A DNA stretch of 64,000 bases from Candidatus Babelota bacterium (GTDB taxonomy: Bacteria > Babelota > Babeliae > Babelales > JABDEC01), in NCBI GenBank assembly GCA_013287265.1, contig JABDEC010000002.1:10105-74104 (forward strand). Direction: 5' to 3'. The notes beneath the pieces were generated by a model. The model was not told the origin of the DNA, made no database searches, and worked only from the letters and a program-made list of their open reading frames with translations. This document shows positions 7,222-28,993 of this stretch, one piece after another (the first letter of the stretch is position 1; each line of letters starts with the position of its first letter). A program made the position numbers and the translations under genes.

Positions 7222-9825
7222 ATGAACAAAAAAATATTATCATTATTTTTTCTTATTTTAAAAATCAAATCTAATCAAGAAATAATTACAAATTCTAATG
7301 ACGATCCAGATGGATTCGGATCTCAATTCCATGGCATAATTACCGCAGTTATTTATGCTTCATTAAACAATAAAAAATTTGTTTATACCCCGCTTAAAAA
7401 AATTGATGATACCATTGATTCAGATTTATCAAAAAAAGAATGGTTAATTAATTTTATTAATAATGTTGAAATTAATGAAAAAAATCATGATAATCATTGT
7501 AAATTTTATAAAAAATATTTCGACGAAAATATCTTTGAATGCGCAAACTGCGTTGTATTAAACAATATAAGAAAATTATTTAAAGCTAATAAAAATACTA
7601 AAAATTATTTCCATAATAAAAATCTGAATGTTGCCATTCACATTAACGATATTGATACGTCATCAAATATTATTAATAAATCAAATAATTTTTATCCGGA
7701 TATTATAAAAAAACTTAGAACGATGTATTCTTCAAGAAACATTTTATTTCATATATTTTCTAAAGGAAATAAAGAAAATTTTAATGTTTTTACTGGAGAA
7801 GATATTATTCTTCATTTGGATAAATCAACAGAAGATACTTTTTGTTCAATGGTTTTTGCAGATATTTTAGTGACAGCACCAAGCTCATTTAGTTATGTAG
7901 CCGGAATATTATCAGAAAATTTAGTTTATTATGTTCCATTTCTTTACAAACCATTACCCCATTGGATAGACGTAGACACACTTTTAGGCAATGTTGAAAA
8001 AATAGAATATAACCTTGTTAAAAATTTACCGGATATTTATATTACACCATTCGCTGAAAAAATCGGAACGTGGTCAAATGGTATTGTCTATGATCAACCT
8101 CTCATTCAAAAATTTTTTAACTTATTAAATCTACATCAAAATTTTTTTGTAATGTTAGATTTGGGGGCACAAACTGGAAGTTTTTCTTTATTAGCCAAGT
8201 ATTTTCCCAATTCTAAATGGTATTCATTCGAACCAATTCAGGAAGTTGAAGCAATTTTAAAAGAAAATTTAATTATTAATGATATAAAAAATGTCTCAAC
8301 ATACCAAATGGCGGTTTCAGATTTTTCTGGATCAAACACAATTAAAATGCCGCCAATAAATCGTTGGGGAGGAGCAACATTAGGATCAAATCCAAATTTT
8401 ACAACAGTACTTGAAAGAAAAATTGAATGTATCGATTTGGATAGTTTTATTATTAATGAAAATATCAAAAAAGTACATTTTATGAAATTAGATACCGAAG
8501 GTCATGAATTATTTATTTTACGCGGCGCCAAGAAAATGATCGTTCGTGATAAACCTATAATATTAATGGAATATAATGAATATAATATGAAACAATGCAA
8601 TGTTAAAAAAGACGACATTCACGATTTATTAACTGAGTTGGGATATAATTGGGTAAAAATTAGTGACGATGATATTCTCTGTATAAATTTAGAAGGCATA
8701 ATTACCAAACTCAAAGATGATATTAATATAGACCTCACTAAAATGGAAAATAATATTAACAAAATAAAAAATTTATATAGAGAATTATTGGATTTACAAC
8801 TAAATATTAATAAAACTGAACCATATAAATCAAAAAATGTTGTTCAATTTATCAATACATTGGCAGAAATTATAATAAAAAAGTTTGATCTTCATAATCA
8901 TTTAAATCAATTAGAAGAAACCAATAGAGAAATTATCGTCAATACGAGAAAATTTGAGTTAGACCAAGTTAAAGAAATAGAAATAAAAATTTTAGATTTA
9001 ATTAAAAATATGCAAAATCTAAGTATTTTGAAAAATGTCGAAGAAATTAAAGAAATACAAGAATCATTCGAATCGATAATTAAGAATGAAGATATATTCA
9101 GTTTAGACAGATTAAAAATAACATTAAAGATTCCAGCTGAAATTAAAGAAGCATTAAAAAAATATTTAGATGATTTTCCAAATTTATTTAAGAATATAAA
9201 TGAATTAAGTAAAGATGGTTATACTTTATTAGAAAAGGCAATTGATAATAAAGATTTAGATGCTATAAATTTCATTCTTGAAATAGGTGGAAACATTGAT
9301 ACGAAAGATATTAACGGAAATACACCATTAATTTATTCTATTGCTATGGCTCAAGAACCATTTGCAGTATTTTTAATTAAGAATAATGCAGATATTAATT
9401 TAATGAATAAAAATGGCCAAACAGCATTGTCCATTGCAAAACAAAATAATCTGACCTCAATTGTTCAAATAATTGCTTCTAAGATTCTAGTCAGATATTT
9501 AAAAGATCTCCCACCACTTTTAGAAAATATTAATTCGCAAACGTCTGATGGAAAAAGCGCATTGGACATTGCAACATTTTTATACAATGATATTAATGCT
9601 GTAAGAGCATTAATTGATTTAGGTGCAAATGTGAATGTACAAGATAATAATGGAACAACGCCTTTAATGCACGCTGTTGAATATAATCGGCCTGAAATAT
9701 TAAGGCTATTAATTGCACGTGGCGCAGATATTAATCATAAAAATAAACTTGGTGATAGTGCGTTAATGTATGCAAAATCGCTCGATTATAAACATATTAT
9801 TGATATAATTCACAATAAAAGATAA
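7222..9825 (+). CDS. GT11-like domain / FkbM methyltransferase / coiled coil / ankyrin-repeat fusion protein
   Basis: The first ~490 aa are colinear with 5700..7211, and the methyltransferase domains are near-identical over long runs. aa ~490-660 is a heptad-rich low-complexity stretch. From nt ~9214 there are ankyrin repeats (NGNTPLIYS, NGQTALSIA, DGKSALDIA, NGTTPLMHA, LGDSALMYA). The HxRR motif is replaced by HINDID. Confidence 0.85.
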   Translation: MNKKILSLFFLILKIKSNQEIITNSNDDPDGFGSQFHGIITAVIYASLNNKKFVYTPLKKIDDTIDSDLSKKEWLINFINNVEINEKNHDNHCKFYKKYFDENIFECANCVVLNNIRKLFKANKNTKNYFHNKNLNVAIHINDIDTSSNIINKSNNFYPDIIKKLRTMYSSRNILFHIFSKGNKENFNVFTGEDIILHLDKSTEDTFCSMVFADILVTAPSSFSYVAGILSENLVYYVPFLYKPLPHWIDVDTLLGNVEKIEYNLVKNLPDIYITPFAEKIGTWSNGIVYDQPLIQKFFNLLNLHQNFFVMLDLGAQTGSFSLLAKYFPNSKWYSFEPIQEVEAILKENLIINDIKNVSTYQMAVSDFSGSNTIKMPPINRWGGATLGSNPNFTTVLERKIECIDLDSFIINENIKKVHFMKLDTEGHELFILRGAKKMIVRDKPIILMEYNEYNMKQCNVKKDDIHDLLTELGYNWVKISDDDILCINLEGIITKLKDDINIDLTKMENNINKIKNLYRELLDLQLNINKTEPYKSKNVVQFINTLAEIIIKKFDLHNHLNQLEETNREIIVNTRKFELDQVKEIEIKILDLIKNMQNLSILKNVEEIKEIQESFESIIKNEDIFSLDRLKITLKIPAEIKEALKKYLDDFPNLFKNINELSKDGYTLLEKAIDNKDLDAINFILEIGGNIDTKDINGNTPLIYSIAMAQEPFAVFLIKNNADINLMNKNGQTALSIAKQNNLTSIVQIIASKILVRYLKDLPPLLENINSQTSDGKSALDIATFLYNDINAVRALIDLGANVNVQDNNGTTPLMHAVEYNRPEILRLLIARGADINHKNKLGDSALMYAKSLDYKHIIDIIHNKR

Positions 9826-9857: not shown

Positions 9858-10826
9858 GTGACAATTAACAATATTTTTTTTTTAATCATTTTCATTTTTT
9901 TTAAAATCTATTCAACTCAAGAAATAATTACTAATTCTAATACAAAGTATTCTGATGGTTTTGGATCACAATTTCATGAAATTATTTCTACTATTATTTA
10001 TGCTGAATTAAATAACAAAAAATTTGTTTATACACCCTTTAAAGAAATGGACCATAATTATAAAGAAGATTCAGATTTCATTTCAAAAAAAGAATGGTTG
10101 ACAAATTTCACTGGAAATTTTGAACTTACTCAACACAAATTCAACAAAACTAATAAAAGAACAGAATTTTTTAATGAAAATATTGAAAAATGCTCCAAAA
10201 GTGAAAGTTTAAAAAAAATAAAAAAGATTTTTAGAGCAAATAAGAATATTAAAAACTATTTTTCAAATAAAGCAGCTGGTGAATCAAGTGAAACTGACCA
10301 AAGCAACCCAGCCTTCGCTCCGTCTACGTGTAAAACTTCGACGGACAGGCAAGGCGGAGTTTATCCTGAGCATGTCGAAGGGGCGGGTTATTCTCCTAAC
10401 ACTAATCCACGAGATAAAGCACGTAGTGTTCTGGCGACGGAGAACAAAAATTTTAATATTGCTATTCATGTAAGAAGACCAAACTCACACGATACAAGAA
10501 CAGAAGGAACTGATTTACCAAATAAATTTTATTTAAATATAATTAACAATTTGCGCAACTTATACAAAGCAGAAAATTTATTATTTCACATTTTTTCACA
10601 AGGAGACATTAAAAATTTTAAAGTTTTTGAATCAAAAGATACAATTTTGCATTTAGATGAATCAATTGAAGATACATTTTGTTCAATGGTTTTTGCAGAT
10701 ATGTTAATAGTTGGTCCAAGTTCATTCAGTTATGTTGCAGGTATCTTATCTGAAAATTTAGTTTATTATATTCCATTTGTTTTGCTTAATCCTTTACCAC
10801 ATTGGAAATCAGTAGAAAAATTTTAA
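9858..10826 (+). CDS. GT11-like glycosyltransferase paralog (no methyltransferase domain) carrying a 57-codon in-frame element insertion
   Basis: DGFGSQFH, IAIHVRRPNSHD, FHIFSQG and EDTFCSMVFADMLIVGPSSFSY are present. The insertion lies between NYFSNK and NKNFNIAIH when compared with the paralogs. Confidence 0.7.
   Translation: MTINNIFFLIIFIFFKIYSTQEIITNSNTKYSDGFGSQFHEIISTIIYAELNNKKFVYTPFKEMDHNYKEDSDFISKKEWLTNFTGNFELTQHKFNKTNKRTEFFNENIEKCSKSESLKKIKKIFRANKNIKNYFSNKAAGESSETDQSNPAFAPSTCKTSTDRQGGVYPEHVEGAGYSPNTNPRDKARSVLATENKNFNIAIHVRRPNSHDTRTEGTDLPNKFYLNIINNLRNLYKAENLLFHIFSQGDIKNFKVFESKDTILHLDESIEDTFCSMVFADMLIVGPSSFSYVAGILSENLVYYIPFVLLNPLPHWKSVEKF
10272..10442. repeat. GC-rich palindromic element, copy C, inserted in frame (171 nt) in 9858..10826
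   Basis: 89/171 G+C by my count. Outer inverted repeat GCTCCGTCTACGTG ... CACGTAG..GACGGAG. Central hairpin ACTTCGACGGACAGG ... CCTGAGCATGTCGAAGG. No stop codon on either strand, which explains track ORFs 10279..10473 and 10284..10469. Confidence 0.75.
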
Positions 10827-10833
10827 ATAATTC

Positions 10834-11781
10834 TTAATATTTTTGAATTGAAATATAATCAGGACCTTTTACTCCATTTCTCTTTGCTACAATTAAACCA
10901 TCTCCAGAACAACTTTCTTTGTGAGTATGTTCAGCAAGAATTATAAAGTTATGATTTTTGAGATAGCTTATGCAATCTAAATGTGTACTATTTATTCCTT
11001 CATACCCATGAGTTGAAATAAAAAAATAGTCAATTTTATATATATTCCTTTTTAATGTTTTTAGCATGTCATATTCAGAACCTTGAATATCTGCATGCAA
11101 AATATGAATGTGTTCGATTTTTTCTTTCTCAATAAAATCCTCTAAGATTACCTGTTCAACATCTTTCAAATGTACAAGATCTTCATCAATTATTTTTCCA
11201 ACACAACCTTGTTTAAAAATCCCTACTTTATTATTTAATGCAAAATTTTTCTTACCAACTTCAAGACGCTTAGGATCAGGTTCAATTAAATAATTTTTTG
11301 CGCCTTTGATTGAAAATGCAAACCATAATGAATAATATGCCCAAAAGGAACCAAGCTCTAACATTGTTGCATTTTCTGGTATGTATTTTAAAACTTCATA
11401 AAAACATTTTTCTTCTTGAGGCTCATGATGCCCTTTGAGTCCATAAATTACGTCAGTTGCCCATTGTACATCGTAATAAGAATTCAGAACGATTTTTACC
11501 CCATTATGCATTAACTGATAAAACAATTCACCATTAAAAAAAATTTCTCCTGCGTCTTTAACTTTAGGAATATAATCACAATCTGTGCCTGAAATTGTTT
11601 TAAGAGCTCGGTTCATTTGATAAGTTGAATCTGACAAATTTAAATTCGCAAGCATAATTTCTTTAGCTCTAATTTTATGCTCTTCTATTTGTGAAGGTGA
11701 ATAAATAATAAATTCATTAATACTTTTTATATTTGATATATACAAAATTATTATAAAAATATTTTTTTTAAATAATTTCAT
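10834..11781 (-). CDS. FkbM-like SAM methyltransferase (module A1; paralog of 13577..14512)
   Basis: LELGSFWAYYSLWFA..NYLIEPDPKRLEVGKKNFALNN..ILHADIQGSEYDMLKTL. I chose the ATG at 11781 because it aligns with the paralog start MKLHKK; the track start at 11796 is TTG. Confidence 0.7.
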   Translation of the reverse strand: MKLFKKNIFIIILYISNIKSINEFIIYSPSQIEEHKIRAKEIMLANLNLSDSTYQMNRALKTISGTDCDYIPKVKDAGEIFFNGELFYQLMHNGVKIVLNSYYDVQWATDVIYGLKGHHEPQEEKCFYEVLKYIPENATMLELGSFWAYYSLWFAFSIKGAKNYLIEPDPKRLEVGKKNFALNNKVGIFKQGCVGKIIDEDLVHLKDVEQVILEDFIEKEKIEHIHILHADIQGSEYDMLKTLKRNIYKIDYFFISTHGYEGINSTHLDCISYLKNHNFIILAEHTHKESCSGDGLIVAKRNGVKGPDYISIQKY

Positions 11782-11802
11782 AATTTTCGATCTCAAAACT
11801 GA

Positions 11803-12585
11803 TTAAACATTTACGCCTTTATCAGTTTGGCTAACTTCTATACGGTTATTTTTTACATAATCTGTAAATTTAGGATTGAAATAAGTTGGATCATAAACCT
11901 GGCTCGAGGTATATCTAATAAAGCCAATACCTGTCATATAATTATCAATATCTTTTTCTGAATTAATTGTATCTTTGTAATGATAATTTTCAGCTTCAAG
12001 AGTAATGTAAATTACTTTTTCTTGAAGATAATTTTGAGCACTTTTAGCTATATTTAAATCTGATCCCTGAGCATCAATCTTAATATGCTCAATAACTGGA
12101 TGAATATCAAAAGGAAATAAATCAAAAAAATCTTTCAATGAAAATACCGGAACGTCTATAATTTTTTCTACTGCCAAATATAATGGCTGGTAAAGGCTTG
12201 AAGTTCCGCAATCATGTGATGTTACATAAAATTTCATCATCGAATTACTATTTAAATTTAATGCGCATGGAATCAAAAAAAAATTTTTTCCAATGAGAGA
12301 TTTATCTAAATATTTCCCGGATAAAATTGAGCTAATACTTGAAGGATTGGGTTCAAATGCAAAAACAAATAAATCATTTTCATGTTTAAGCCAATATTGA
12401 GAAATTGGCGCGCAATATGAAAGACCAATATCTAATTTAACATGTTTAATGCTAGTCGCGATTTCCATTTTTCCATCGGCTCTGAATGGAATTATTTTTT
12501 CTAAGATCTCTTTTAAATTAGAATTAGCATTTAAGAAATAATTTAAAAAAAATATTAATAAAAAAAATTTCCTTAAAAACATCAA
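11803..12585 (-). CDS. FkbM-family methyltransferase (module B1; paralog of 14589..15392)
   Basis: VKLDIGLSY..VFAFEPNP...IKIDAQGSDLNIAKSA..ITLEAE. Signal-like N-terminus. Confidence 0.7.
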   Translation of the reverse strand: MMFLRKFFLLIFFLNYFLNANSNLKEILEKIIPFRADGKMEIATSIKHVKLDIGLSYCAPISQYWLKHENDLFVFAFEPNPSSISSILSGKYLDKSLIGKNFFLIPCALNLNSNSMMKFYVTSHDCGTSSLYQPLYLAVEKIIDVPVFSLKDFFDLFPFDIHPVIEHIKIDAQGSDLNIAKSAQNYLQEKVIYITLEAENYHYKDTINSEKDIDNYMTGIGFIRYTSSQVYDPTYFNPKFTDYVKNNRIEVSQTDKGVNV

Positions 12586-12593
12586 TTTCCTTT

Positions 12594-13559
12594 TTAAAAA
12601 ATAACTTCGATATTATTTATAATTTGATTCATTCTTTTATCTAACCAATTTAAATCAATAGATTTTTTTTGAAACTTTAAATAATAATCGCGCAAAGCAA
12701 CATTTAAAATTAAAAAAGTATTTGTAGTCCATTTGTTGGCCCACCAAGTTATTAAATGCGAGTATAATTTTAGATAATCATAAGCGTTCTCAGACATCTG
12801 ATAAGGAAATTCTTTTAATTTACTAACTAAATCTTTTCTTACGAAAGTAATATTGCCAGTAAAAGATACAGGAACATATCCCTTGTTTAAACCCAATTTA
12901 ATTCCGGAAATAAAACTACAACCACCAGCAACTCTGTTAGAAGAATAATAACTCAATAAATCAATTTTATACTCTTTACATCTATTTTTCGGAAGTTCAT
13001 CAAAAATTGGATCACGATAGGGATTTACTTCAAAAATTACAATTTTGGGATTATAATCGGTTAAATTTTCCCAGACATAGTAATCATCACCATCAATATC
13101 TATAGATAGTAAATCAAAATCATATGGCAAATTTCCCCTTTTTAGCCAAGCATTAAGATCATTGTTTTTATCATTATAAAGGACGGCTCCATGAAAAACT
13201 TTAACGTTTGACAAAGTTCTATAATTATCTAAACATTTTTCATAAAGTAATTTATCTAATTCTATAGAAATGCCCGAAAAATTATGATTTTTAATTAAAT
13301 TATATGTATTGCTTGAAGTAATGCCATCAGATGCGCCGAATTCACAAAATGTTCCATTTTTAATGTCTAATTCTTTAATTAACTGTTCAATAATTCCATC
13401 TTCACCATTTTGAGAATAAATATTTTTACAATATTTATGATAAGTGTTCTCTGGTAATTTAAAGCGATAATCGAATGGCTCATCAGTTATTTTTATATCT
13501 AATAAATCTGAAAAAATGCTGGTGACTGAAAATAAGATTAATAAAAGAAAAAAATTCAT
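12594..13559 (-). CDS. FkbM-like methyltransferase (SQxGED type)
   Basis: YSQNGEDGIIEQLIKEL..FCEFGASDGITSSNTYNL..GISIE is typical of the FkbM N-terminus. The start at 13559 (MNFFLLLILF) has an upstream AGGA and avoids overlap with the neighbouring gene. Confidence 0.6.
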   Translation of the reverse strand: MNFFLLLILFSVTSIFSDLLDIKITDEPFDYRFKLPENTYHKYCKNIYSQNGEDGIIEQLIKELDIKNGTFCEFGASDGITSSNTYNLIKNHNFSGISIELDKLLYEKCLDNYRTLSNVKVFHGAVLYNDKNNDLNAWLKRGNLPYDFDLLSIDIDGDDYYVWENLTDYNPKIVIFEVNPYRDPIFDELPKNRCKEYKIDLLSYYSSNRVAGGCSFISGIKLGLNKGYVPVSFTGNITFVRKDLVSKLKEFPYQMSENAYDYLKLYSHLITWWANKWTTNTFLILNVALRDYYLKFQKKSIDLNWLDKRMNQIINNIEVIF

Positions 13560-13576
13560 TAAATATCCTAATTCTT

Positions 13577-14512
13577 TTAATATTTTTGAATTGAAATACA
13601 TTTTGGACCATAAACAGCTTTTTTCTTGGCTACGATTAAGCCATCACCCGAACAACTTTCCTGTTCAGAATGTTCAGCTAAAATAATATAATTATTTTCA
13701 ATTAAAAATTTTCTACAAGAAGCATGTATTGGTCCAAAACCATGTGTTGATATGAAAAAATAATCAATTTTAATTAGATGCTTTTTTAAAGTTTTTAACA
13801 TATCAAATTCTGAACCTTGAATGTCTGCATGAAGAATATTAATGTGATCAATTCCTTCTTTTTCTATAAAATCATCTAAAATTATTGATTCAGCGCCTGA
13901 TATATCCGGGTCACGATCAACTACATTTCCAATATATCCTCTTTTAAAAACACCAAATTTATTATTTAGAGCAAAATTTTTCTTACCAACTTCAAGACGT
14001 TTTAGATCTGGTTCAATCAAATAATTTTTTGCACCTTTGATTGAAAATGCAAACCATAACGAATAATATGCCCAAAAAGAACCAAGTTCAATCATCGTTG
14101 CATTTTCTGGAATATATTTTAAAACTTCATAAAAACATTTTTCTTCCTGCGGTTCATGATGTCCTTTAAGACCCCAGATTACATCATTAGTCCATTTGCC
14201 ATAATAAGAATTAAGATGAACTTTTATACCATTATGCATTAATTGATATGCAACATCTCCATCTTTAAAAATTTCTCCAGCACCTACTATTTTCGGAATA
14301 TAATCTGAATCTGTACCTGAAATTGTCCTCATTGCTCTTTGCATTTGGTAAGTAGGGTCAGATAAGTTTGCAGGATTGGTAATCATTTTTTCTTTGCAAA
14401 TATCTCTATGTTCATCCATTTGTGAAGGTGCATAAATAATAAATTCATCTACACATTTTATATTTGATAAATAAAGAATTATAATTAAAATACTTTTTTT
14501 ATGTAATTTCAT
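13577..14512 (-). CDS. FkbM-like SAM methyltransferase (module A2)
   Basis: Colinear with 10834..11781 and near-identical across FYEVLKYIPENATM(I/L)ELGSFWAYYSLWFAFSIKGAKNYLIEPD. RBS AGAGGA upstream. Confidence 0.7.
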   Translation of the reverse strand: MKLHKKSILIIILYLSNIKCVDEFIIYAPSQMDEHRDICKEKMITNPANLSDPTYQMQRAMRTISGTDSDYIPKIVGAGEIFKDGDVAYQLMHNGIKVHLNSYYGKWTNDVIWGLKGHHEPQEEKCFYEVLKYIPENATMIELGSFWAYYSLWFAFSIKGAKNYLIEPDLKRLEVGKKNFALNNKFGVFKRGYIGNVVDRDPDISGAESIILDDFIEKEGIDHINILHADIQGSEFDMLKTLKKHLIKIDYFFISTHGFGPIHASCRKFLIENNYIILAEHSEQESCSGDGLIVAKKKAVYGPKCISIQKY

Positions 14513-14539
14513 AATTTCCTCTTTAGATTCCGATGTGAA

Positions 14540-14568
14540 ATCTTAATAATTTTTTTTAAAATTGTCGA
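14540..14568 (-). promoter_or_regulatory. Putative sigma70-type promoter (TCGACA-17-TAAGAT) upstream of 13577..14512
   Basis: The minus strand reads TCGACA attttaaaaaaaattat TAAGAT. An almost identical ~30-nt block recurs at 15427..15455. Confidence 0.5.
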
Positions 14569-14588
14569 TTTATTTATTAATCCAGCTT

Positions 14589-15392
14589 CTAGCGTTGAAA
14601 AATTTTAACAGGATTATTTTTAATATAGCCAGAAAAGCGAGGATTAAAATAAGTAGGATCATCTGTAAAAGACGATCTATATTCAACAAATCCAATGCTC
14701 TTCATATAATTATGTATATCTCTCGCTGAACTCACAGCATTTTGATATTGCCCAATTTCAGCTTCAAGTGTTATATAAATAATTCTTTCTGTTAAATAAT
14801 TTCCAGCACTTTTTACAATATCTAAATCAGAGCCTTGAGCATCAATTTTAATATATTCAATAACTGGATGAGTATCAAAAGGAAATAAATCAAAAAAATC
14901 TGATAAAGAAAACATTGGGACTTCTATTATATCTTCGACGGGAAAATATACTGGAGGGTAAATACTGGAACAACCACAATCATTCTTGGTTACATAAAAT
15001 TTCATCATTGAGTTACTTTGCAAGCCCAATGCGCATGGAATCAAAAAAAAATTTTTATTTACGAATTTTTTTTCTAGTGGTGTTCCATGAGATTCATGTC
15101 TCAATTTAATTTCTGAATCTTGTAAAATAGAACCTATGCATTCTGGATTTGGTTCAAAACCAAACACCATAAGATTTTCTTCATGTGTAAGCCAATATTG
15201 TGAATTATTAGCCCCGTAAGAAAGTCCAATATCTAATTTTATACGTTTAATATCTAATGGAATGTCAATTTTTCCATCTTTTTTAAAGTTAATAAAATTT
15301 TGAATTATTGTTTTTAAACTGGGCATATTTGAATTAGTTTTACTAAAAATTAAAAATAATATTAAAAATATCCAACTGTTTTTTAAAAACAT
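14589..15392 (-). CDS. FkbM-family methyltransferase (module B2)
   Basis: IKLDIGLSY..VFGFEPNP...IKIDAQGSDLDIVKSA..ITLEAE. The start at 15392 has RBS AAGGAAAAG and lies downstream of the predicted promoter; the track start at 15425 would lie at or before the likely transcription start. Confidence 0.7.
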   Translation of the reverse strand: MFLKNSWIFLILFLIFSKTNSNMPSLKTIIQNFINFKKDGKIDIPLDIKRIKLDIGLSYGANNSQYWLTHEENLMVFGFEPNPECIGSILQDSEIKLRHESHGTPLEKKFVNKNFFLIPCALGLQSNSMMKFYVTKNDCGCSSIYPPVYFPVEDIIEVPMFSLSDFFDLFPFDTHPVIEYIKIDAQGSDLDIVKSAGNYLTERIIYITLEAEIGQYQNAVSSARDIHNYMKSIGFVEYRSSFTDDPTYFNPRFSGYIKNNPVKIFQR

Positions 15393-15426
15393 TCTTTTCC
15401 TTTTAATAAAAACATTTTGATGCAAG

Positions 15427-15455
15427 ATCTTAGTAATTTTTTTTAAAATTGTCGA
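15427..15455 (-). promoter_or_regulatory. Putative sigma70-type promoter (TCGACA-17-TAAGAT) upstream of 14589..15392
   Basis: The minus strand reads TCGACA attttaaaaaaaattac TAAGAT. It duplicates the block at 14540..14568. Confidence 0.5.
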
Positions 15456-15519
15456 TGTCTTTTAGCTTGCCTTTTATAAATTGAGATAGTAAAATGCAGT
15501 GTCAAAATTAAAGGAAATT

Positions 15520-16434
15520 ATGAAAAAAATTTTCAAAATATTGTATTTAATATTTATTATTAATAATTGTTTTTCAAATGAAAATAAAAAAAATGATCTA
15601 TACTTTTGCACTGCCGCTGATGCAAAGTATTTTGATCTATTAATAAATCTAATTGGTAGCATACATAAAACAAATTTTGAAAATTTAAAAGAAATAGCTG
15701 TTTTTGACCTTGGGCTTACTGATAATCAAAAAGATTTTTTACAAAAAATAGAAAAAACTAAAGTTTATCAAATTGAATTAACACATCCTGATTTATTAAA
15801 ACAAGTTAGAGTAAATAATGATAACAAACATGTACCTGGCTGGTATGCGTGGAAATTTGTAGTGCTCAAACAAGCTGCAGAAATGTTTCCATATTTTTTT
15901 TGGGTTGATGCAGGAATAGTAATTTTAAATCCTGTGGATAATATTTTCGATATAATTATTGACAAAGGTCTTTTCGTCGGCAATTTACCACACTGCAATA
16001 AATATCAAACAATTCAGCACTTAATAAAAAAATTTAATATTAATGATCCAAAAAATAATTGGATTTTAGAAAAACATACAGTAATTTCAACATTTATTGG
16101 CATTTCAAAAAAAGTTGTAAATAATTTGGTCCTGCCATTGTATGAAATGACAAAAGACATGAAAAATTTTATTGATGATGGAACTTCAGTAAACGGTTTT
16201 GGTTCATCAAGGCCTGAACAGGCTATTTTAAGTTTATGGTGTTATTTATATGGTTTTGATTCATATGAAATAGCACATTCATCTCCTGCTCCAGTTAAAT
16301 TAAATGACAAAGAAGTTCCAATTTACATCGCTATTCCCTGGCATGTAACGCATAGAACACAAATTTATTTAGATGCAAAATCAGATAAACATTATAATGA
16401 AAAATACAAAGAATTTATAAAATTAATTGAATAA
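15520..16434 (+). CDS. Putative nucleotide-diphospho-sugar transferase-like protein
   Basis: The N-terminus LYFCTAADAKYFDLLINLIGSIHK..IAVFDLGL resembles the start of GT-A type transferases (GT77/DUF1647-like). The ATG at 15520 follows AAGGAA; the track start at 15499 is GTG. The family call is weak. Confidence 0.4.
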   Translation: MKKIFKILYLIFIINNCFSNENKKNDLYFCTAADAKYFDLLINLIGSIHKTNFENLKEIAVFDLGLTDNQKDFLQKIEKTKVYQIELTHPDLLKQVRVNNDNKHVPGWYAWKFVVLKQAAEMFPYFFWVDAGIVILNPVDNIFDIIIDKGLFVGNLPHCNKYQTIQHLIKKFNINDPKNNWILEKHTVISTFIGISKKVVNNLVLPLYEMTKDMKNFIDDGTSVNGFGSSRPEQAILSLWCYLYGFDSYEIAHSSPAPVKLNDKEVPIYIAIPWHVTHRTQIYLDAKSDKHYNEKYKEFIKLIE

Positions 16435-16436
16435 AA

Positions 16437-17516
16437 ATGCAAAATAAAAAGTACGCAATTTTATTTTTTATTTATTTTAATATTGTATGCAAAAATTATA
16501 TTACTAATGATGTTTCAGTTCAACTTGGTGATGGATTAATTAATTTCTCCATTGCAAAAATCCTAGCTTTAAAGTACCCAGATAAAATCGAACTTCTTTA
16601 TAGACCATTTATGCATCATGAATTGTTTGCTTTAGAAACATGTGAAAAAAAATTAGATTATAATTCACAATTTTCAAAAACTGTTTTTGTAAGAAGTGAT
16701 GAAGACATTATAAATAATAAAGAAGATAATGTTTTGTTTATTGCAACACTCGGAACTAAGGTAAACTCAATTGATGATTCATTAATTAAAGAATTAAAAA
16801 AAGTAGTTAAACTTAAAAAAATTCCAAAAATTAACGAACTTCCCGATGATTTAATTACTGTAGCCGTGCATATCAGAAAAGGAAATGGTGGCGGAGCAAT
16901 TTATGATGGCGAACAATCTTCTTTGCAGATTTTTGATTTTGAACGATCGCAAGTAAAATATGTTAACGATTTTTTTAATTATCCATTTGATTGGGAATCT
17001 TATCAAAGAAAAGACAATATTTTAAATAATATTCAATTAAAAAATTATAAAGATTATGCAGAAAAATGGACTTGCGAAGGGAAACCAAGAGACAGAGTTG
17101 ATTACTTTCAAGTTAAATTACCACCGGATCAATTTTACATTGATCAGATAAAAAAATTATCACATGATTTAAACAATTCAAAATTATTTGTGCAAATTTT
17201 TACTGATGATAGAAATCCATTTGAATTATTAGAAAGAATAAAAGAAAATATAAATTTACCGAATGTAACAATTTGTTATGAAAACAATTGGCAATTTTCA
17301 TTTCATGAAAGAGTTGAACAAGATTTATTCGGTCTTTCAAGAACGGATATTCTAATACGTCCACAATCTAATTTTTCCAGAATGGCAGAATTAATTGGAA
17401 ATCATAAAATAGTTATTTATCCTTTAGAGTTTTCATGGGTTGAAAACAATAAATTAGTTATGGATAAAATTGTGATTAAAGGCAATATAGATAATCTAAA
17501 AAATAAAAATGCTTAA
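16437..17516 (+). CDS. GT11-like/fucosyltransferase-superfamily glycosyltransferase (divergent)
   Basis: LGDGLINFSIAKILALKY (compare GGLGNQxFqyA), VAVHIRKGNGGG (HxRxG), DLFGLSRTDILIRPQSNFSRMAE (motif III-like). Confidence 0.55.
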   Translation: MQNKKYAILFFIYFNIVCKNYITNDVSVQLGDGLINFSIAKILALKYPDKIELLYRPFMHHELFALETCEKKLDYNSQFSKTVFVRSDEDIINNKEDNVLFIATLGTKVNSIDDSLIKELKKVVKLKKIPKINELPDDLITVAVHIRKGNGGGAIYDGEQSSLQIFDFERSQVKYVNDFFNYPFDWESYQRKDNILNNIQLKNYKDYAEKWTCEGKPRDRVDYFQVKLPPDQFYIDQIKKLSHDLNNSKLFVQIFTDDRNPFELLERIKENINLPNVTICYENNWQFSFHERVEQDLFGLSRTDILIRPQSNFSRMAELIGNHKIVIYPLEFSWVENNKLVMDKIVIKGNIDNLKNKNA

Positions 17517-18345
17517 ATTTAAAATATTCTTAATTTCATTACTTTTTAATTTAAAAATAATATTTAGCCAGGAAGTTATTACTAATGCTAATAGAATAAA
17601 TCCTGATGGCTTTGGTTCTCAATTACAGGAAATTGTTGCTGCTGTTATTTATGCTGAATTGGAAAATAAAAAATTTGTTTATACACCATTTGAAAAAATG
17701 GAACATAATTACGATAGTGATCCGGAATATATAACAAAAAAAGAATGGTTAATTAATTTCAAAGATAATTTTGAAATTAATAAAGATAATAATGCAAAAA
17801 TGTTATATAGCAGAAAACCATTTTTGGATGATAATATAAATAGATGCGCCAATTGTCCGGCATTAAAAAAAATTCGACAAATTTTTAAAGCAAACAAAGA
17901 TATAAATAATTATATTAATTCTGAAGTTTTTAATATTGCGATTCACATTAGAAGAGCATACAATCCAGTTGATAAAGGCGGCGTTCTAAATCCAAATTAT
18001 CCTGATGATTTTTACATGAAAATTATAAATAAACTAAGACAAATATATTCGTCAAAAAATCCATTATTTCATATTTTTTCACAAGGTAAAGATGAAAAAT
18101 TTAAAAGTTTCATTGCAGATGATATTGTTTTACATTTAGATGAACCATTAGAAAGAACTTTCTGCGCATTAGTTTTTGCAGATATTTTAGTAACTTCTCC
18201 AAGTTCTTTTGGTTATTCGGCAGGTTTATTATCTGAAAATATAGTTTATTATGCACCTTTCTGGCACAGACCATTACCAGATTGGATTTCAACAGATACA
18301 CTTTTTGAAAATAATGAAAAAATTTATCTTACTACAGTCAAATAA
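17509..18345 (+). CDS. GT11-like glycosyltransferase paralog (stand-alone)
   Basis: DGFGSQLQ, IAIHIRRAYNPVD, FHIFSQG, ERTFCALVFADILVTSPSSFGY. Confidence 0.75.
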   Translation: MLKFKIFLISLLFNLKIIFSQEVITNANRINPDGFGSQLQEIVAAVIYAELENKKFVYTPFEKMEHNYDSDPEYITKKEWLINFKDNFEINKDNNAKMLYSRKPFLDDNINRCANCPALKKIRQIFKANKDINNYINSEVFNIAIHIRRAYNPVDKGGVLNPNYPDDFYMKIINKLRQIYSSKNPLFHIFSQGKDEKFKSFIADDIVLHLDEPLERTFCALVFADILVTSPSSFGYSAGLLSENIVYYAPFWHRPLPDWISTDTLFENNEKIYLTTVK

Positions 18346-19195
18346 ATTTATTTTAATTTTATTAATGAATTTTTCTTTGGTTAAAGGTTTTACACCAATA
18401 ATCCAACTTCCTTTTGATAACTCTTTAGCTTTTCTTAATTTTATAAAAAAATATTTACCTGAAAATCCAATAATAATAGAGGCTGGCGCGTGTGAGGGTA
18501 ATGATACAATTTTAATGGCGAAAATTTGGCAAAATTCAACTATTCATACTTTTGAACCTGTTCCAAAACTTTATGCGGAATTAAGAAATAAGGTATATCC
18601 AGCCTACGCTAAAGCTTCGGCGGATTCTCCTGCAATTTATTGCACAGATAAAATCCTCGGTGCTTCTGCTCCGGAGAAAATATTTACTTATAATTTAGCA
18701 TTAAGTGATAAAACAGAAGTTACAAAAATGTATATTTCTAAAAATAAGAAACATTCAGAAGAATTTTCTGGTTCAAGCTCACTCTTAAAACCGAAATTCC
18801 ATTTAATTTGCCACCCTAATATAACATTTGAAGAAGAAATTTTAGTACAAGCAATAACTTTAAATGAGTGGGCAAATCAAAACAAAATAGAAAAAGTTGA
18901 TTTATTATGGCTAGATATTCAAGGAAAAGAATTGCCTGTTTTAAAACATGCACAAAATATTTTGAAAAATTTAAAAGTTTTAGTAATTGAAGTTGAAATG
19001 ATTGATTTGTATGAAAAACAAAATTTATTTATTGAAACAAAAGAGTGGATTGAAAAAAATGGATTTACATTAGTAGCATGCGATTTTATAAATCGACTTT
19101 GTTATAGCGGAAATGCAGTTTTTGTAAAAAGGGAAAATAATGATAAAAATTTTGCTCAGCCTGATATTAATTTCAACAAAATTATCTGCAAATAA
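18314..19195 (+). CDS. FkbM-family methyltransferase carrying a 27-codon in-frame element insertion
   Basis: IIIEAGACEGNDTILMA..IHTFEPVP...LWLDIQGKELPVLKHA..LVIEVE. The start is uncertain (18251, 18314 or 18365); 18314 gives the signal-like N-terminus MKKFILLQSNKFILILLM. Confidence 0.7.
   Translation: MKKFILLQSNKFILILLMNFSLVKGFTPIIQLPFDNSLAFLNFIKKYLPENPIIIEAGACEGNDTILMAKIWQNSTIHTFEPVPKLYAELRNKVYPAYAKASADSPAIYCTDKILGASAPEKIFTYNLALSDKTEVTKMYISKNKKHSEEFSGSSSLLKPKFHLICHPNITFEEEILVQAITLNEWANQNKIEKVDLLWLDIQGKELPVLKHAQNILKNLKVLVIEVEMIDLYEKQNLFIETKEWIEKNGFTLVACDFINRLCYSGNAVFVKRENNDKNFAQPDINFNKIICK
18596..18676. repeat. GC-rich palindromic element, copy D, inserted in frame (81 nt) in the FkbM gene
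   Basis: Its ends resemble copy C: CCAGCCTACGCT vs CCAGCCTTCGCT, and TTCTGCTCCGGAGAA vs TTCTGGCGACGGAGAA. Central palindrome TGCAAT-TT-ATTGCA. Encodes YPAYAKASADSPAIYCTDKILGASAPE. Confidence 0.65.
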
Positions 19196-25552: not shown

Positions 25553-28500
25553 ATGGATAAACATTTTACGCATTTACATCTTCATACTGAATTTTCACTT
25601 TTAGATGGTGCAATTAGCATAGAAAAGCTAATTGATTTTGGTAAAAAAAACAGCCTAAAAGCACTTGCAATAACTGATCATGGCAATATTTTTGGAGCTG
25701 TTAAATTCTTTCAACAATGCAAATCGGCCGGAATAAAACCGATTTTAGGAATGGAAGCATATTTAACTGAAGATGTTTCCATAAAATCTGTTGATAAAAA
25801 ATATTATCATTTAATTTTATTGGTGCAAAATTCCATTGGTTACAAAAACCTATGTAAATTAATTTCATTTTCTTATCAGGAAGGTTTTTATTTTAAACCA
25901 AGAATTGATTACAAAACATTAAAAAAATATTCAGAAGGTTTAATTGTAACAACTGCTTGTCTTGGTGGCCACATTCCGACCTTATTAATGAATAATAATG
26001 AAAAAGAGGCGGAACAGTATACAAATTGGTTTTTAGATGTTTTCGGTCCTGAAAGATTTTATCTGGAAGTTCAACCTGAAGATCAGAATGAACAAAAAAT
26101 TTTAAATCAAAAATTATTTGATTGGGCAAAAAAATATTCATTAAATTGTGTTGCTGCAGGAGATTGTCATTATGTCAACAAAGAGGATCATGAAGCTCAT
26201 GAAATAATGCTTGCAATTCAAACTCATAATAAAATTGATGATCCTGATAGATTCACTTTTGGAAAATGCAGAGCATATATGCGCACTCAGGATGAAATGC
26301 TTGAAATATTTAAGAATAATCACGATGCAATTTGGAATTCGGGCAAAATCGCTGACATGTGCGATTTTAAATTTGAAACGGGCAAATTATTTTTTCCAAA
26401 ATTTGAAGTACCTATTGAACATACACAAGATAGTTATTTTAGGTATCTTTGCCAATTTGGTTTTGAAAAATTAATTCAAAATGAAAGAATTGATACACAA
26501 GAAAAAGATCATTACCAAAAAAGATTAAATCTTGAAGTTGATTTAATAATAAAGATGGGATTTGTTGGTTATTTTTTAGTTGTTAGTGATTTTATTCAAT
26601 GGGCAAAAAAAAATGGAATTCCTGTCGGACCTGGAAGAGGTTCAGTTGCAGGTTCTTTAGTTGCATGGGCATTGGAAATTACAAATATTGACCCGATAAA
26701 ATACAACCTTCTTTTTGAACGCTTTTTAAATCCTGAACGCGTAAGCATGCCAGATATTGATATAGATTTTTGCATTGATGGTAGAGAAAAAGTAATTCAA
26801 TATGTTCGCGATAAATATGGTCATGATAAAGTTTGTCAGATAATTACTTTTGGTACTATGATGGCAAAAGGCGTAATTAAAGATGTTGCCAGAGTTTTAG
26901 GATTTCCATTTGAAGATGCCAATTCATTAACTGATTTAATTCCGGATCAGTTAAAAATCTCTCTTGAAGAATCTGTCTCGCAAGAACCAAAAATTAAAAA
27001 TTTAATTGAAGCAAATTCAAAAGTCGCACATTTATTTGATATTGCAAAACGATTAGAAGGTCTAACAAGACATGCATCAAAACATGCAGCAGGAATAGTA
27101 ATTTCTCCTGAACCTATTGATGATGTTTTACCAGTTTATATTCCAACAAAAAGCACAGAATTGGTAACTCAATACGCCATGACAGAACTGGAAACTCTTG
27201 GTTTTTTAAAAATGGATATGTTGGGTTTAAAAAACCTGACTCTAATTGATAAAGCACTGCAATTAATTGAACAAAATCACAAAATTAAAATTGATATTGA
27301 TAAAATTCCTCTCAATGATGCAAAATCATTTGAGCTTTTGTGTAAAGGTAAAACTACCGGGATATTCCAATTAGAATCTGATGGCCTTAAAGAAGTTTTG
27401 AAACGACTTCAACCAGAAAAATTTGAAGATATCATTGCAGTCAATGCTCTGTATCGCCCAGGACCTTTAGGCTCAGGAATGGTTGAAGATTTTATTGAAC
27501 GCAAACATGGAAGACAAAAAATTCACTATTTATTTCCTGAACTTGAACCAATTTTAAATGAAACTTATGGAGTTATTGTTTACCAGGAACAAGTAATAAA
27601 AATTGCTTCTGCAATTGGTGGCTACACTTTAGGTGAAGCAGATATTTTGCGCCGCGCGATGGGCAAGAAAAAAGCTGAAGTAATGGCTGAGCAAAGACAA
27701 ATTTTCATGGATAAAGCGCAAAAAAATGGCTTTGATGCGCAAAAAGCAAAAGAGCTTTTTGATCTAATGGAATATTTTGCCGGTTATGGATTTAATAAAT
27801 CTCATTCAGCAGCATATGCTTTAATTGCATATCAGACTGCATATTTAAAAGCGAATTACAAAGCAGAATTTATGGCATGCCTCATTTCATTAGAATCAAC
27901 AAATACTGAAAACATGGCATTTTATCTTGATGAAGCAAAAGATATGGGCATAGAAATAATACCGCCAGATATTAATAAATCTGAAATTAATTTTACTGTT
28001 GTTGATGGAAAAATTTTATTTGGCTTACAAGGTATTAAAAATGTCGGTCTTGCATCATTAGAAAATATACTTTTAGAACGTAATAAGAAAACATTTAATA
28101 ATATTTTAGATTTTTGCATAAGAATTGATCTAAGAACTTCAAATAAACGTGTCTTAGAAAATTTAATTTACGCAGGAGCTTTTGATTCATTAAAAGGAAA
28201 CAGGGCGCAAAAAATTGCAGAGTTACAAAAAATTATGGAAGTCTCTGTTGAGAAGAAAAAAGCTGCATTAACCGGACAAATGGGATTATTTGCAATTTCA
28301 AATGGTGAAAATGAAGTTGAAGAAATTTATGATTTTGAACCAATTGATGATTTTGATGAAAAAGAAAAATTGCAAAAAGAAAAAGAAGTAATGGGATTTT
28401 ATTTAAGTTCTCATCCACTAGATACATATAAAACTTTAAAATGGATAAATGTCAGTTCATTTGATAAGTTTGGGGAAAAATTAAATTCAATAATAAGTGC

Positions 28501-28993
28501 AGAACAAGAAATTGTAATGACCGGTTGTGGAATTTTAAAAAGTTGTAAAAAAATTCTGACAAAAAAAGGCGATAGCATGGCATTCGTACAACTTGAAGAT
28601 AAAAATTCCCATGCAGAAATTATTATTTTTCCCAAACTTTATAAAATTGTTGAAAATTGGCTTTCATCTCATACCGTCTTTGTTGTAAAAGGTGCGCTTG
28701 ATTTAACACAAACAACAAAATGTAAAATTAAAGCTGAACAATTTGTGCCTATTGATTTATTTTTTGAGCATTGGAATTCAATTGAACAAATACAGTTAAA
28801 TTTAGATCAATTTTCTATTGAAACATTAGAAAATCTGAAAAAGAATTTTACAAAAGGAAAAACAAAACTTAATTTTATTTTTAATGAAAATAATAAAAAA
28901 TTAGCATTAAAAACAAATCAAAGTGTAAACATAGATTTTGAAACAATAAATCAGCTTCAGGAGAAAAATATTGAATTCAAATTTAATATATAA
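25553..28993 (+). CDS. dnaE: DNA polymerase III alpha subunit
   Basis: PHP domain (HLHLHTEFSLLDG, ITDHGN), palm/fingers motifs (PDIDIDF, GRGSVAGSLVAWAL, HAAGIVIS, LKMDMLGLKNL, FNKSHSAAYA) and a C-terminal OB region. 1146 aa. Confidence 0.97.
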   Translation: MDKHFTHLHLHTEFSLLDGAISIEKLIDFGKKNSLKALAITDHGNIFGAVKFFQQCKSAGIKPILGMEAYLTEDVSIKSVDKKYYHLILLVQNSIGYKNLCKLISFSYQEGFYFKPRIDYKTLKKYSEGLIVTTACLGGHIPTLLMNNNEKEAEQYTNWFLDVFGPERFYLEVQPEDQNEQKILNQKLFDWAKKYSLNCVAAGDCHYVNKEDHEAHEIMLAIQTHNKIDDPDRFTFGKCRAYMRTQDEMLEIFKNNHDAIWNSGKIADMCDFKFETGKLFFPKFEVPIEHTQDSYFRYLCQFGFEKLIQNERIDTQEKDHYQKRLNLEVDLIIKMGFVGYFLVVSDFIQWAKKNGIPVGPGRGSVAGSLVAWALEITNIDPIKYNLLFERFLNPERVSMPDIDIDFCIDGREKVIQYVRDKYGHDKVCQIITFGTMMAKGVIKDVARVLGFPFEDANSLTDLIPDQLKISLEESVSQEPKIKNLIEANSKVAHLFDIAKRLEGLTRHASKHAAGIVISPEPIDDVLPVYIPTKSTELVTQYAMTELETLGFLKMDMLGLKNLTLIDKALQLIEQNHKIKIDIDKIPLNDAKSFELLCKGKTTGIFQLESDGLKEVLKRLQPEKFEDIIAVNALYRPGPLGSGMVEDFIERKHGRQKIHYLFPELEPILNETYGVIVYQEQVIKIASAIGGYTLGEADILRRAMGKKKAEVMAEQRQIFMDKAQKNGFDAQKAKELFDLMEYFAGYGFNKSHSAAYALIAYQTAYLKANYKAEFMACLISLESTNTENMAFYLDEAKDMGIEIIPPDINKSEINFTVVDGKILFGLQGIKNVGLASLENILLERNKKTFNNILDFCIRIDLRTSNKRVLENLIYAGAFDSLKGNRAQKIAELQKIMEVSVEKKKAALTGQMGLFAISNGENEVEEIYDFEPIDDFDEKEKLQKEKEVMGFYLSSHPLDTYKTLKWINVSSFDKFGEKLNSIISAEQEIVMTGCGILKSCKKILTKKGDSMAFVQLEDKNSHAEIIIFPKLYKIVENWLSSHTVFVVKGALDLTQTTKCKIKAEQFVPIDLFFEHWNSIEQIQLNLDQFSIETLENLKKNFTKGKTKLNFIFNENNKKLALKTNQSVNIDFETINQLQEKNIEFKFNI

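Follow-up and report, generated by a model that had tools for sequence, protein, structure and literature searches.

What are the GC-rich segments that lie in frame within two genes of an AT-rich bacterium of the Babeliales, where could they have come from, and what would they do to the proteins that carry them? The question is raised by a stretch of 64,000 nucleotides (the whole of which is called the window in the following) from a Candidatus Babelota bacterium (GenBank assembly GCA_013287265.1, contig JABDEC010000002.1, positions 10,105 to 74,104 of the forward strand). The window has a G+C content of 27%; within it a glycosyltransferase gene carries the insert here called C, and an FkbM-family methyltransferase gene carries the insert called D. 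An earlier note on this DNA had described both as insertions of one family and had linked them to two further elements, A and B. At a probability of roughly 0.75, we consider C and D to be non-autonomous repeat DNA resembling the repetitive extragenic palindromes (REP) and the Rickettsia palindromic elements (RPE), inserted at the DNA level and kept through preservation of the reading frame.

The taxonomic placement of the window is supported by its DnaE protein (25553-28993), which shares 68-72% identity with proteins named Candidatus Babeliales or Dependentiae and 79% with its closest relative. Babeliales entries were also found among the homologs of the glycosyltransferase bearing insert C, and the window is therefore assigned to a metagenome-assembled genome of the Babeliales (Dependentiae/TM6).

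In-Frame Insertion of GC-Rich DNA Into Two Genes

Insert C lies in the gene at 9858..10826 (plus strand), an open reading frame (ORF) with 97 database homologs that encodes an HxRR glycosyltransferase with a fucosyltransferase-like GT-B fold. The ORF reads ...NIKNYFSNK, then 57 codons, then NKNFNIAIHVRRPN. The distance from NYF to RRPNx is 19 residues in 92 of the 97 homologs and 16-24 residues in the other five, but 78 residues here. None of the 97 has an equivalent segment at this place, and the net gain is 59 codons or 177 nt, which can be placed equivalently at 10272-10448 or at 10266-10442 (plus strand) and whose removal restores the ancestral NYFSNKNFNIAIH. The G+C content is 52% over the 171 nt first delimited by the earlier note and 51% over the 177 nt, compared with 22.6% in the remainder of the gene, and the third-position G+C is 0.37 vs. 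0.14. Both the comparison with homologs and the composition thus confirm the GC-rich in-frame insertion that had been proposed for this gene. The accompanying statement that the insert has no stops on either strand was wrong, as C is open only in plus frames 0 and 1, and the three minus frames hold 1, 2, and 3 stops. A direct repeat of 6 nt, read from the sequence, flanks the insert (AATAAA at 10266..10271 and AACAAA at 10443-10448, plus strand) and may represent a target-site duplication or mere ambiguity of the junction position.

Insert D (18598..18678, plus strand) is a stretch of about 81 nt with 49% G+C, situated in frame in the gene at 18314..19195 (plus strand), which belongs to the FkbM-family methyltransferases (PF05050, E = 2.8e-19; TIGR01444). 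In the 150 top-ranking homologs of an exhaustive search, the spacing from H.FEP to ALSDK is 33 residues in 142 and 32-36 residues in 148, vs. 56 residues here, i.e., a net gain of 23 codons. The FkbM protein encoded in the syntenic island of a relative shows an identical 23-residue gap when aligned with the D-bearing protein. Third-position G+C is 0.59 in D and 0.16 in the host gene. For both inserts together, G+C amounts to 49-52%, compared with 23-25% in their host genes. The GC-rich stretch has the length of 81 nt given in the earlier note, and the length gained is 69 nt. This difference would mean that D took the place of about four target codons, unless its ends are uncertain by about 12 nt.

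A sharply foreign composition is also what an assembly chimera or contamination of a metagenome-assembled genome could produce, and one contig of the independent Logan assembly of SRR8432293 (5.3 kb) does end inside C, at 10361, after the left junction and the first 90 nt of the insert, so that the support for C from this assembly covers the left junction and not the right one. Against such an artefact, D is present in full on a Logan contig of 34.8 kb and is identical to the window, the NCBI/JGI contig and the Logan assembly agree in sequence wherever D and the left junction of C are spanned, and both flanks stay in one reading frame of one gene. The JGI version of the C-bearing protein differs from that of the window solely by V for M at the GTG start codon. 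The inserts are no assembly error, and the probability that we would leave to a chimera is negligible.

Repeat Modules Shared by the Inserts

Both inserts contain the pattern CCAGCCTNCGCT-N(2-14)-ANCTTCGNCGGA (10308-10345 in C, 18599-18624 in D), which is absent from the rest of the window and was found in 0 of 100 shuffles. This hairpin module is intact in D (CCAGCCTACGCTAAAGCTTCGGCGGA, 18599..18624, plus strand) and degenerate in C, where the match to the pattern (10308..10345, plus strand) holds 14 extra nt in the inner loop. Outside the module, the right halves of the two inserts align over a block of 55 nt from TTCTCC to GGAGAA (z = 6.3, 0 of 2000 shuffles), with a score exceeding those of all 987 GC-matched control windows. 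In C this block (10391..10444, plus strand) reads TTCTCC..AGATAAA..GTG.TTCTG..CGGAGAA; in D it occupies 18625..18678 (plus strand) and holds the TGCAATTTATTGCA palindrome at 18631-18644, in agreement with the central palindrome noted before. Compared with C, D is without the first 36 nt, a 12-nt piece in the loop of the module and a core of 43 nt. The similarity was weak in a single-sequence nhmmer comparison of C and D (E ~0.2). Judged by these sequence matches, the assignment of both inserts to one family is supported by the common module and the right block, though not proven.

The outer inverted repeat of C consists of a left arm GCTCCGTCTACGTG (10317..10330, plus strand) and the segments CACGTAG (10420-10426) and GACGGAG (10436-10442), which pair in the minimum-energy fold; the nested inverted repeats named in the earlier note are present. 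D folds weakly better than shuffled sequence (z = -1.85).

Beyond its module, C continues with a core written in the vocabulary of elements A and B (CAGGCAAGGCGGAG..CCTGAGCATGTCGAAGGGG..CACTAATCCACGAG, 10346..10411, plus strand). This stretch, which reads CAGGCAAGGCGGAG-TTTATCCTGAGCATGTCGAAGGGG and later CACTAATCCACGAG, is colinear with composite elements at three loci of an uncultured bacterium (L008, L021, and L060; z = 4.1-6.5, 0 of 300 shuffles), as scored only on the sequence outside the search pattern. The tie between the core of C and the A/B family that had been suggested holds for this shared vocabulary and for a piece of 17 nt, CCTGAGCATGTCGAAGG, which equals element B (4557-4573) at 16 of 17 positions. 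It does not extend to overall homology, which was rejected for C and A (z ~1.3), only the 17-nt core being common. A resemblance of the right end of C to locus L045 (CACGTAG..GGCGACGG) was also considered and was rejected as not significant.

Element A (1235..1337, plus strand) is located in frame near the 5' end of the ORF at 1183-2319 and has the terminal inverted repeats CCGTTCGTCCTGAG and CTCACCACGAACGG; element B (4498..4581, minus strand) is intergenic and reads CCGTTCGTCCTGAGCTAGTCGAAGGA..GGTTCGACAGGCTCACCACGAGCGG. The ends of A and B are CCGTTCGTCCTGAG and CTCACCACGA(A/G)CGG, and their translations give peptides of the PFVLS, VRPE, and TTNG types, which also turn up in numerous spurious ORFs of metagenome-derived genomes. 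Of the four elements, the three that are intragenic (A, C, and D) have lengths divisible by three and no stop in the host frame.

The lack of a clean target duplication at D, where about four codons were apparently replaced, and the mosaic of modules that makes up C would also fit filler DNA that was copied from genomic repeats during double-strand-break repair or gene conversion, with no transposition involved. This origin would still need the same repeat pool as its source, and the present data fit transposition equally; we consider it rather improbable.

The Hairpin Module in Other Genomes

The module common to C and D (CCAGCCTTCGCT..AGCTTCGGCGGA) was found at no fewer than 60 loci (at least 60) in a scan of bacteria and archaea with one genome per species, compared with a chance expectation of about 3.5 at uniform composition and perhaps 10 when GC-rich genomes are allowed for. 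About 5-7 of the 60 loci look like chance (L029, L046, L053, L024, and L038, plus L006 and L016), on the grounds of a coding-sequence match, a lacking inner stem, or AAC in place of AGC, the latter in L006 and L016. The remaining loci have features in common that the pattern did not impose, namely G at its free position (AGC; 55 of all 60 loci), GT before the module, and C after it. The inner segment forms a small hairpin that varies in length and is still paired (GCTaaAGC, GCTCttcGAGC, GCTCCtaGGAGC, GCTCGTaaACGAGC), and the consensus of the module is a two-stem hairpin, GTCC(A)GCC / TTC / GCT..AGC / TTC / GGCGGAC. Pairing was observed in 88% of cells vs. 32-43% in slid controls, and counting stems from the outside inwards gave 22 extended stems (at least four pairs) vs. 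13 expected from shuffles, a modest excess. In the window, D (E = 2.8e-9) and C (E = 0.006) are the sole hits at E <=10 of a profile built from the other genomes only. The module of D is identical at 28/28 positions to that of L060 and at 31/33 to that of L019. A scan of viral sequences for further copies of C and D returned one chance match in a GC-rich contig.

Carriers of the module include members of the Babeliales/Dependentiae/TM6 (L007, L009, L010, L028, L031, L035, L042, L045, and L055), Rickettsiales, other Alphaproteobacteria, several Patescibacteria, and a few more. A tRNA gene is located within 200 nt in 16 of the 60 listed matches, and in two more at 201 and 226 nt. The tRNA-linked modules (L003, L009, L010, L019, L022, L033, L041, L043, L049, and others) are mostly situated 30-230 nt downstream of the tRNA gene and on the opposite strand; that of L003 is found in the 16S-23S spacer beside tRNA-Ile. 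In this position the module may act as a terminator or processing signal, or the site may be one favoured for insertion.

Several modules are nested in other repeats (L007, L031, L035, and L042 of Babeliales MFD05580; L018, L028, and L055). In Babeliales MFD05580 the module takes the place of the loop in a CGTC-type REP, CGTCGTTGCGAT[module]GAAGCAATCCAGG, and A/B-type elements can have a module within their arm, GGTTCGACAGGCT[module]CAGGCACCACGAGCG, which results in a hairpin-within-hairpin architecture. GC-rich modular elements occur at several per 8 kb in other loci of the Babeliales.

At least seven modules are intragenic and in frame, in hosts confirmed by Pfam: DnaG (Minisyncoccia), SecA (Doudnabacteria), a CCA/poly(A) polymerase, a GDP-sugar epimerase (Babeliales), a GT9 heptosyltransferase, ManC, and PGA_cap. 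They are read on both strands and in several frames, giving peptides such as PAFAEASAD, SAEALAKAG, PPKLSLSEGW, and QPTLSSFGG. Since strands and frames differ, what is conserved is the DNA and no peptide. The epimerase gene of Babeliales SO_2017_GW1_1 (L055, approximately 279-427) is interrupted by a long composite of GC-rich DNA, in which the module is read on the opposite strand (..SAEATQSEGWEPVEG..), and so provides a second example of a Babeliales glycan gene with an insert of this kind.

Consequences for the Proteins

The C-bearing protein was modelled with AlphaFold2 from an alignment of 85 sequences at a mean predicted local distance difference test (pLDDT) score of 85. Residues 139-197 have block means of 38-68, mostly below 60, with flanks above 90, and this segment is situated between the helix 116-127 and the strand 199-204 that leads into H204-x-R206-R207. 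All nine positions that are invariant in the family are kept, and the fold gives weak matches to the GDP-bound GT-B fucosyltransferases FUT1, POFUT1, and FUT8. An example of the peptides predicted from the inserts is AAGESSETDQSNPAFAPSTCK. The model of the D-bearing protein, based on a deep alignment, has an overall pLDDT of 88.5 and values of about 50 across residues 100-120; here the segment comprises residues 96-122, between the helix 84-94 and the strand 123-126 of the methyltransferase fold. The models therefore place both inserts in low-confidence loops between confidently predicted elements, in line with the surface loops that had been proposed. Because pLDDT is low inside the segments and the flanks are confidently folded, C and D are best read, on these models, as disordered surface loops.

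A possibility already raised in the earlier note is excision of the segments from the RNA; in the manner of a tiny intron, ribozyme, or bypass element, they might be removed from the transcript or skipped in translation, leaving proteins without inserts. The inserts are GC-rich and have hairpins, as such a reading would have it. A known structured RNA was however rejected for C and D, as Rfam returned only noise at E up to 10, and among 18 module-bearing loci Rfam found nothing at the module and matched only tRNA and rRNA. C is no more stable than shuffled sequence, and the preservation of length and frame in A, C, and D would be needless if the inserts were excised. Furthermore, seven other genes contain the same module in frame, on one strand or the other. 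With no Rfam match, no special stability, and no reason for frame preservation, we regard removal as very improbable.

A second possibility is that the inserts were recruited as functional loops, exapted for acceptor specificity or partner binding under positive selection. Their sites adjoin the HxRR donor-binding motif and lie inside the methyltransferase fold, and four of the seven intragenic modules elsewhere are in cell-envelope glycan genes. On the other hand, the inserts are modelled as disordered, the intragenic copies share no conserved peptide and differ in frame and strand, and 97 glycosyltransferase and 148 FkbM homologs manage without them. In one FkbM homolog (P0139), the loop corresponding to that of D is interrupted by an AT-rich insert, unrelated to D and about 42 residues long, which suggests that this loop is simply a permissive site. 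Recruitment for a function thus appears unlikely to us.

Relation to Known Repeat Elements

The elements RPE-1 to RPE-8 were reportedly described in Rickettsia by Ogata and colleagues. RPE have been summarised as palindromic elements, and in-frame insertions of REP and RPE coding for 20-82 residues are on record (PMC3733652). C and D are like RPE in being palindromic repeat DNA located in frame in functional genes of an AT-rich obligate intracellular bacterium, which would be translated as surface segments, in having copies between genes and near tRNA genes, and in that their insertion into conserved genes is visible by comparison with homologs. They differ in that no sequence relationship was found, in that they come from another phylum (Dependentiae), and in that they are mosaics of smaller nested modules, whereas an RPE is a single unit of 100-150 bp. 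When the host proteins and the open frames of C and A were compared with NCBIfam, a library assumed to include RPE models, no model matched the inserts in any frame.

With REP and the related BIME (bacterial interspersed mosaic elements) and REPIN (REP doublets forming hairpins) the module of 26-33 nt shares the nature of an imperfect GC-rich palindrome in the size range of REP (20-40 bp), the frequent occurrence as dimers, the frequent transcription downstream of genes, and the occasional intragenic location (PMC3733652; Di Nocera et al., 2013). It differs from them by a conserved symmetric TTC/TTC internal loop and a bulged A. The GTAG or CGTC tag of REP is not found before the module in the window, D being preceded by TAT and C by AAC, and CGTCCAGCC is present only in some copies of other genomes; C and D also lack the A-T pairs at the base of the stem and the CCA tail of the CGTC type. 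As the module is nested inside a CGTC-type REP in Babeliales MFD05580, it is a unit separate from that REP. To our knowledge, no gene for a REP-associated tyrosine transposase (RAYT) has been assigned to the module.

Miniature inverted-repeat transposable elements (MITE) such as Correia/NEMIS, enterobacterial repetitive intergenic consensus (ERIC) sequences, and Nezha are likewise small, non-autonomous, equipped with inverted repeats, and found between and within genes (PMC10969869, PMC2229807). In C, by contrast, the inverted repeats are internal and not terminal, and the flanks that could pass for a target duplication match at 5/6 positions (AATAAA/AACAAA) in C and are missing in D. We know of no parent insertion sequence for C and D.

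Yeast mitochondrial GC clusters are mobile palindromes rich in G+C, set in a genome that is very AT-rich, and some of these clusters are in frame in var1. The likeness to them is in behaviour only, as they are organellar and unrelated in sequence. The small dispersed repeats (SDR) of cyanobacteria, tiny hairpin units that nest in other repeats, are said to have been described by Elhai et al. in 2008; their 'Russian doll' nesting is like that of the module, and the sequences differ. No description of such elements in Dependentiae was found in the literature searched. The inserts behave like RPE and intragenic REP, yet by sequence comparison they match no RPE and depart from the GTAG/CGTC rules.

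Distribution in the Window and in Relatives

All four elements, i.e., two copies of the C/D type and two of the A/B type, are located within the first 19 kb of the 64-kb window. Pattern and profile searches of the window found no copy beyond A, B, C, and D, which agrees with the earlier impression by eye that the 40-kb housekeeping part has none. The nearest available relatives (DnaE 72-73% identical) also have a syntenic glycan island upstream of dnaE, in which A, B, C, and D are all missing, and the insertions are thus specific to the present lineage. Regarding the proposed bias of the elements towards the island, which concerns four post hoc events in 64 kb, tolerance is a simpler reading than attraction. 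The occurrence of the module elsewhere in dnaG, secA, the gene of the CCA-adding enzyme, and tRNA flanks as well as in glycan genes argues against a strict island specificity.

Two sister Babeliales have their own, different GC-rich palindromic intergenic segments (L068, 6794-6898; L067, 19316-19445), for example CCAAGGGTCCTTGG and CCTAAGGTGT..ACACCTTAGG, and none of the A, B, C, or D types there.

Four paralogs of the HxRR glycosyltransferase are encoded in the window (5700-7211, 7222-9825, 9858-10826, and 17509-18345), two of which are fused to FkbM domains, one of these two with ankyrin repeats as well. A pair of FkbM-like genes is tandemly duplicated (10834-12585 and 13577-15425). The breaks of the independent Logan contigs fall in this region of HxRR paralogs and FkbM duplication. 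The ORF at 132-1190 has a DOT1-like histone methyltransferase domain (PF08123, E = 4.5e-21) and, since this is a eukaryote-type domain in an intracellular bacterium, may encode a host-directed effector.

Origin of the Inserts

The origin that we favour, insertion of REP/RPE-like repeat DNA, would have proceeded as follows. C and D would be two copies, C being the long one, of a lineage-specific composite of GC-rich hairpin modules, which would themselves belong to an extensive stock of miniature palindromic repeats (REP/RPE/MITE kind) that spans phyla and has no coding content. The DNA would have been inserted into the glycosyltransferase and FkbM genes of this Babeliales (Dependentiae) bacterium, probably mobilised by an enzyme acting in trans that is perhaps specific for single-stranded DNA hairpins. 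The inserts would have survived by virtue of (i) a length that is a multiple of three, (ii) the lack of a stop in the host frame, and (iii) permissive loop sites, the chance that both sequences keep the frame open on random insertion being roughly estimated at 1 in 50. They would then be expressed along with the host gene, in both transcript and protein, and form disordered surface loops that disturb the fold slightly or not at all.

Several observations weigh against this account. Only two copies of the C/D type are known. The three matches that a metagenome scan with the shared 3' block yielded, all in archaeal proteasome alpha genes, are ascribed to chance, the scanned collections of metagenomes and of species-representative genomes being ones that do not include the present genome. 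The 6-nt repeat on either side of C is imperfect (5/6), D has no target duplication, and C folds no better than shuffled sequence (z = +0.46). Formal covariation of the paired positions was not significant in an alignment in which most columns are fixed by the search pattern and the loop is misaligned by MAFFT. In the window and the compared loci, neither a transposase nor a parent element nor an empty-site allele came to light, none of these having been the object of a systematic search. A word-index search for the peptide of C in other proteins was empty, a weak negative given that it missed the host protein too. Translation of C and D and their near-neutrality for the host are inferred.

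A wider and more tentative proposal, possible rather than probable as one joint claim, is that the inserts sample a hitherto undescribed cross-phylum pool of nested GC-rich mini-elements, consisting of the GTCCAGCC-TTC-GCT..AGC-TTC-GGCGGAC module and partner modules and moved by a hairpin-specific single-stranded DNA enzyme. The proposal includes that the pool may be common to Dependentiae, Patescibacteria, Rickettsiales, and other Alphaproteobacteria and may have spread horizontally among host-associated bacteria, and that its elements may enter the hairpin loops of other repeats, the 3' flanks of tRNA genes in a fixed orientation, and coding sequence in frame.

Implications

The conversion of in-frame repeat DNA into protein, documented mainly in Rickettsia and a few REP-rich proteobacteria, would by the present reading of C and D be extended to the Dependentiae, a phylum that parasitises protists and for which metagenomes are almost the sole source of knowledge. 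For annotation this carries a warning, as GC-rich 'loops' in the proteins of AT-rich metagenome-assembled genomes may be repeat insertions. The occurrence of a near-identical 26-nt hairpin in distant, mostly host-associated lineages, often downstream of tRNA genes, points to horizontal spread or to a shared function.

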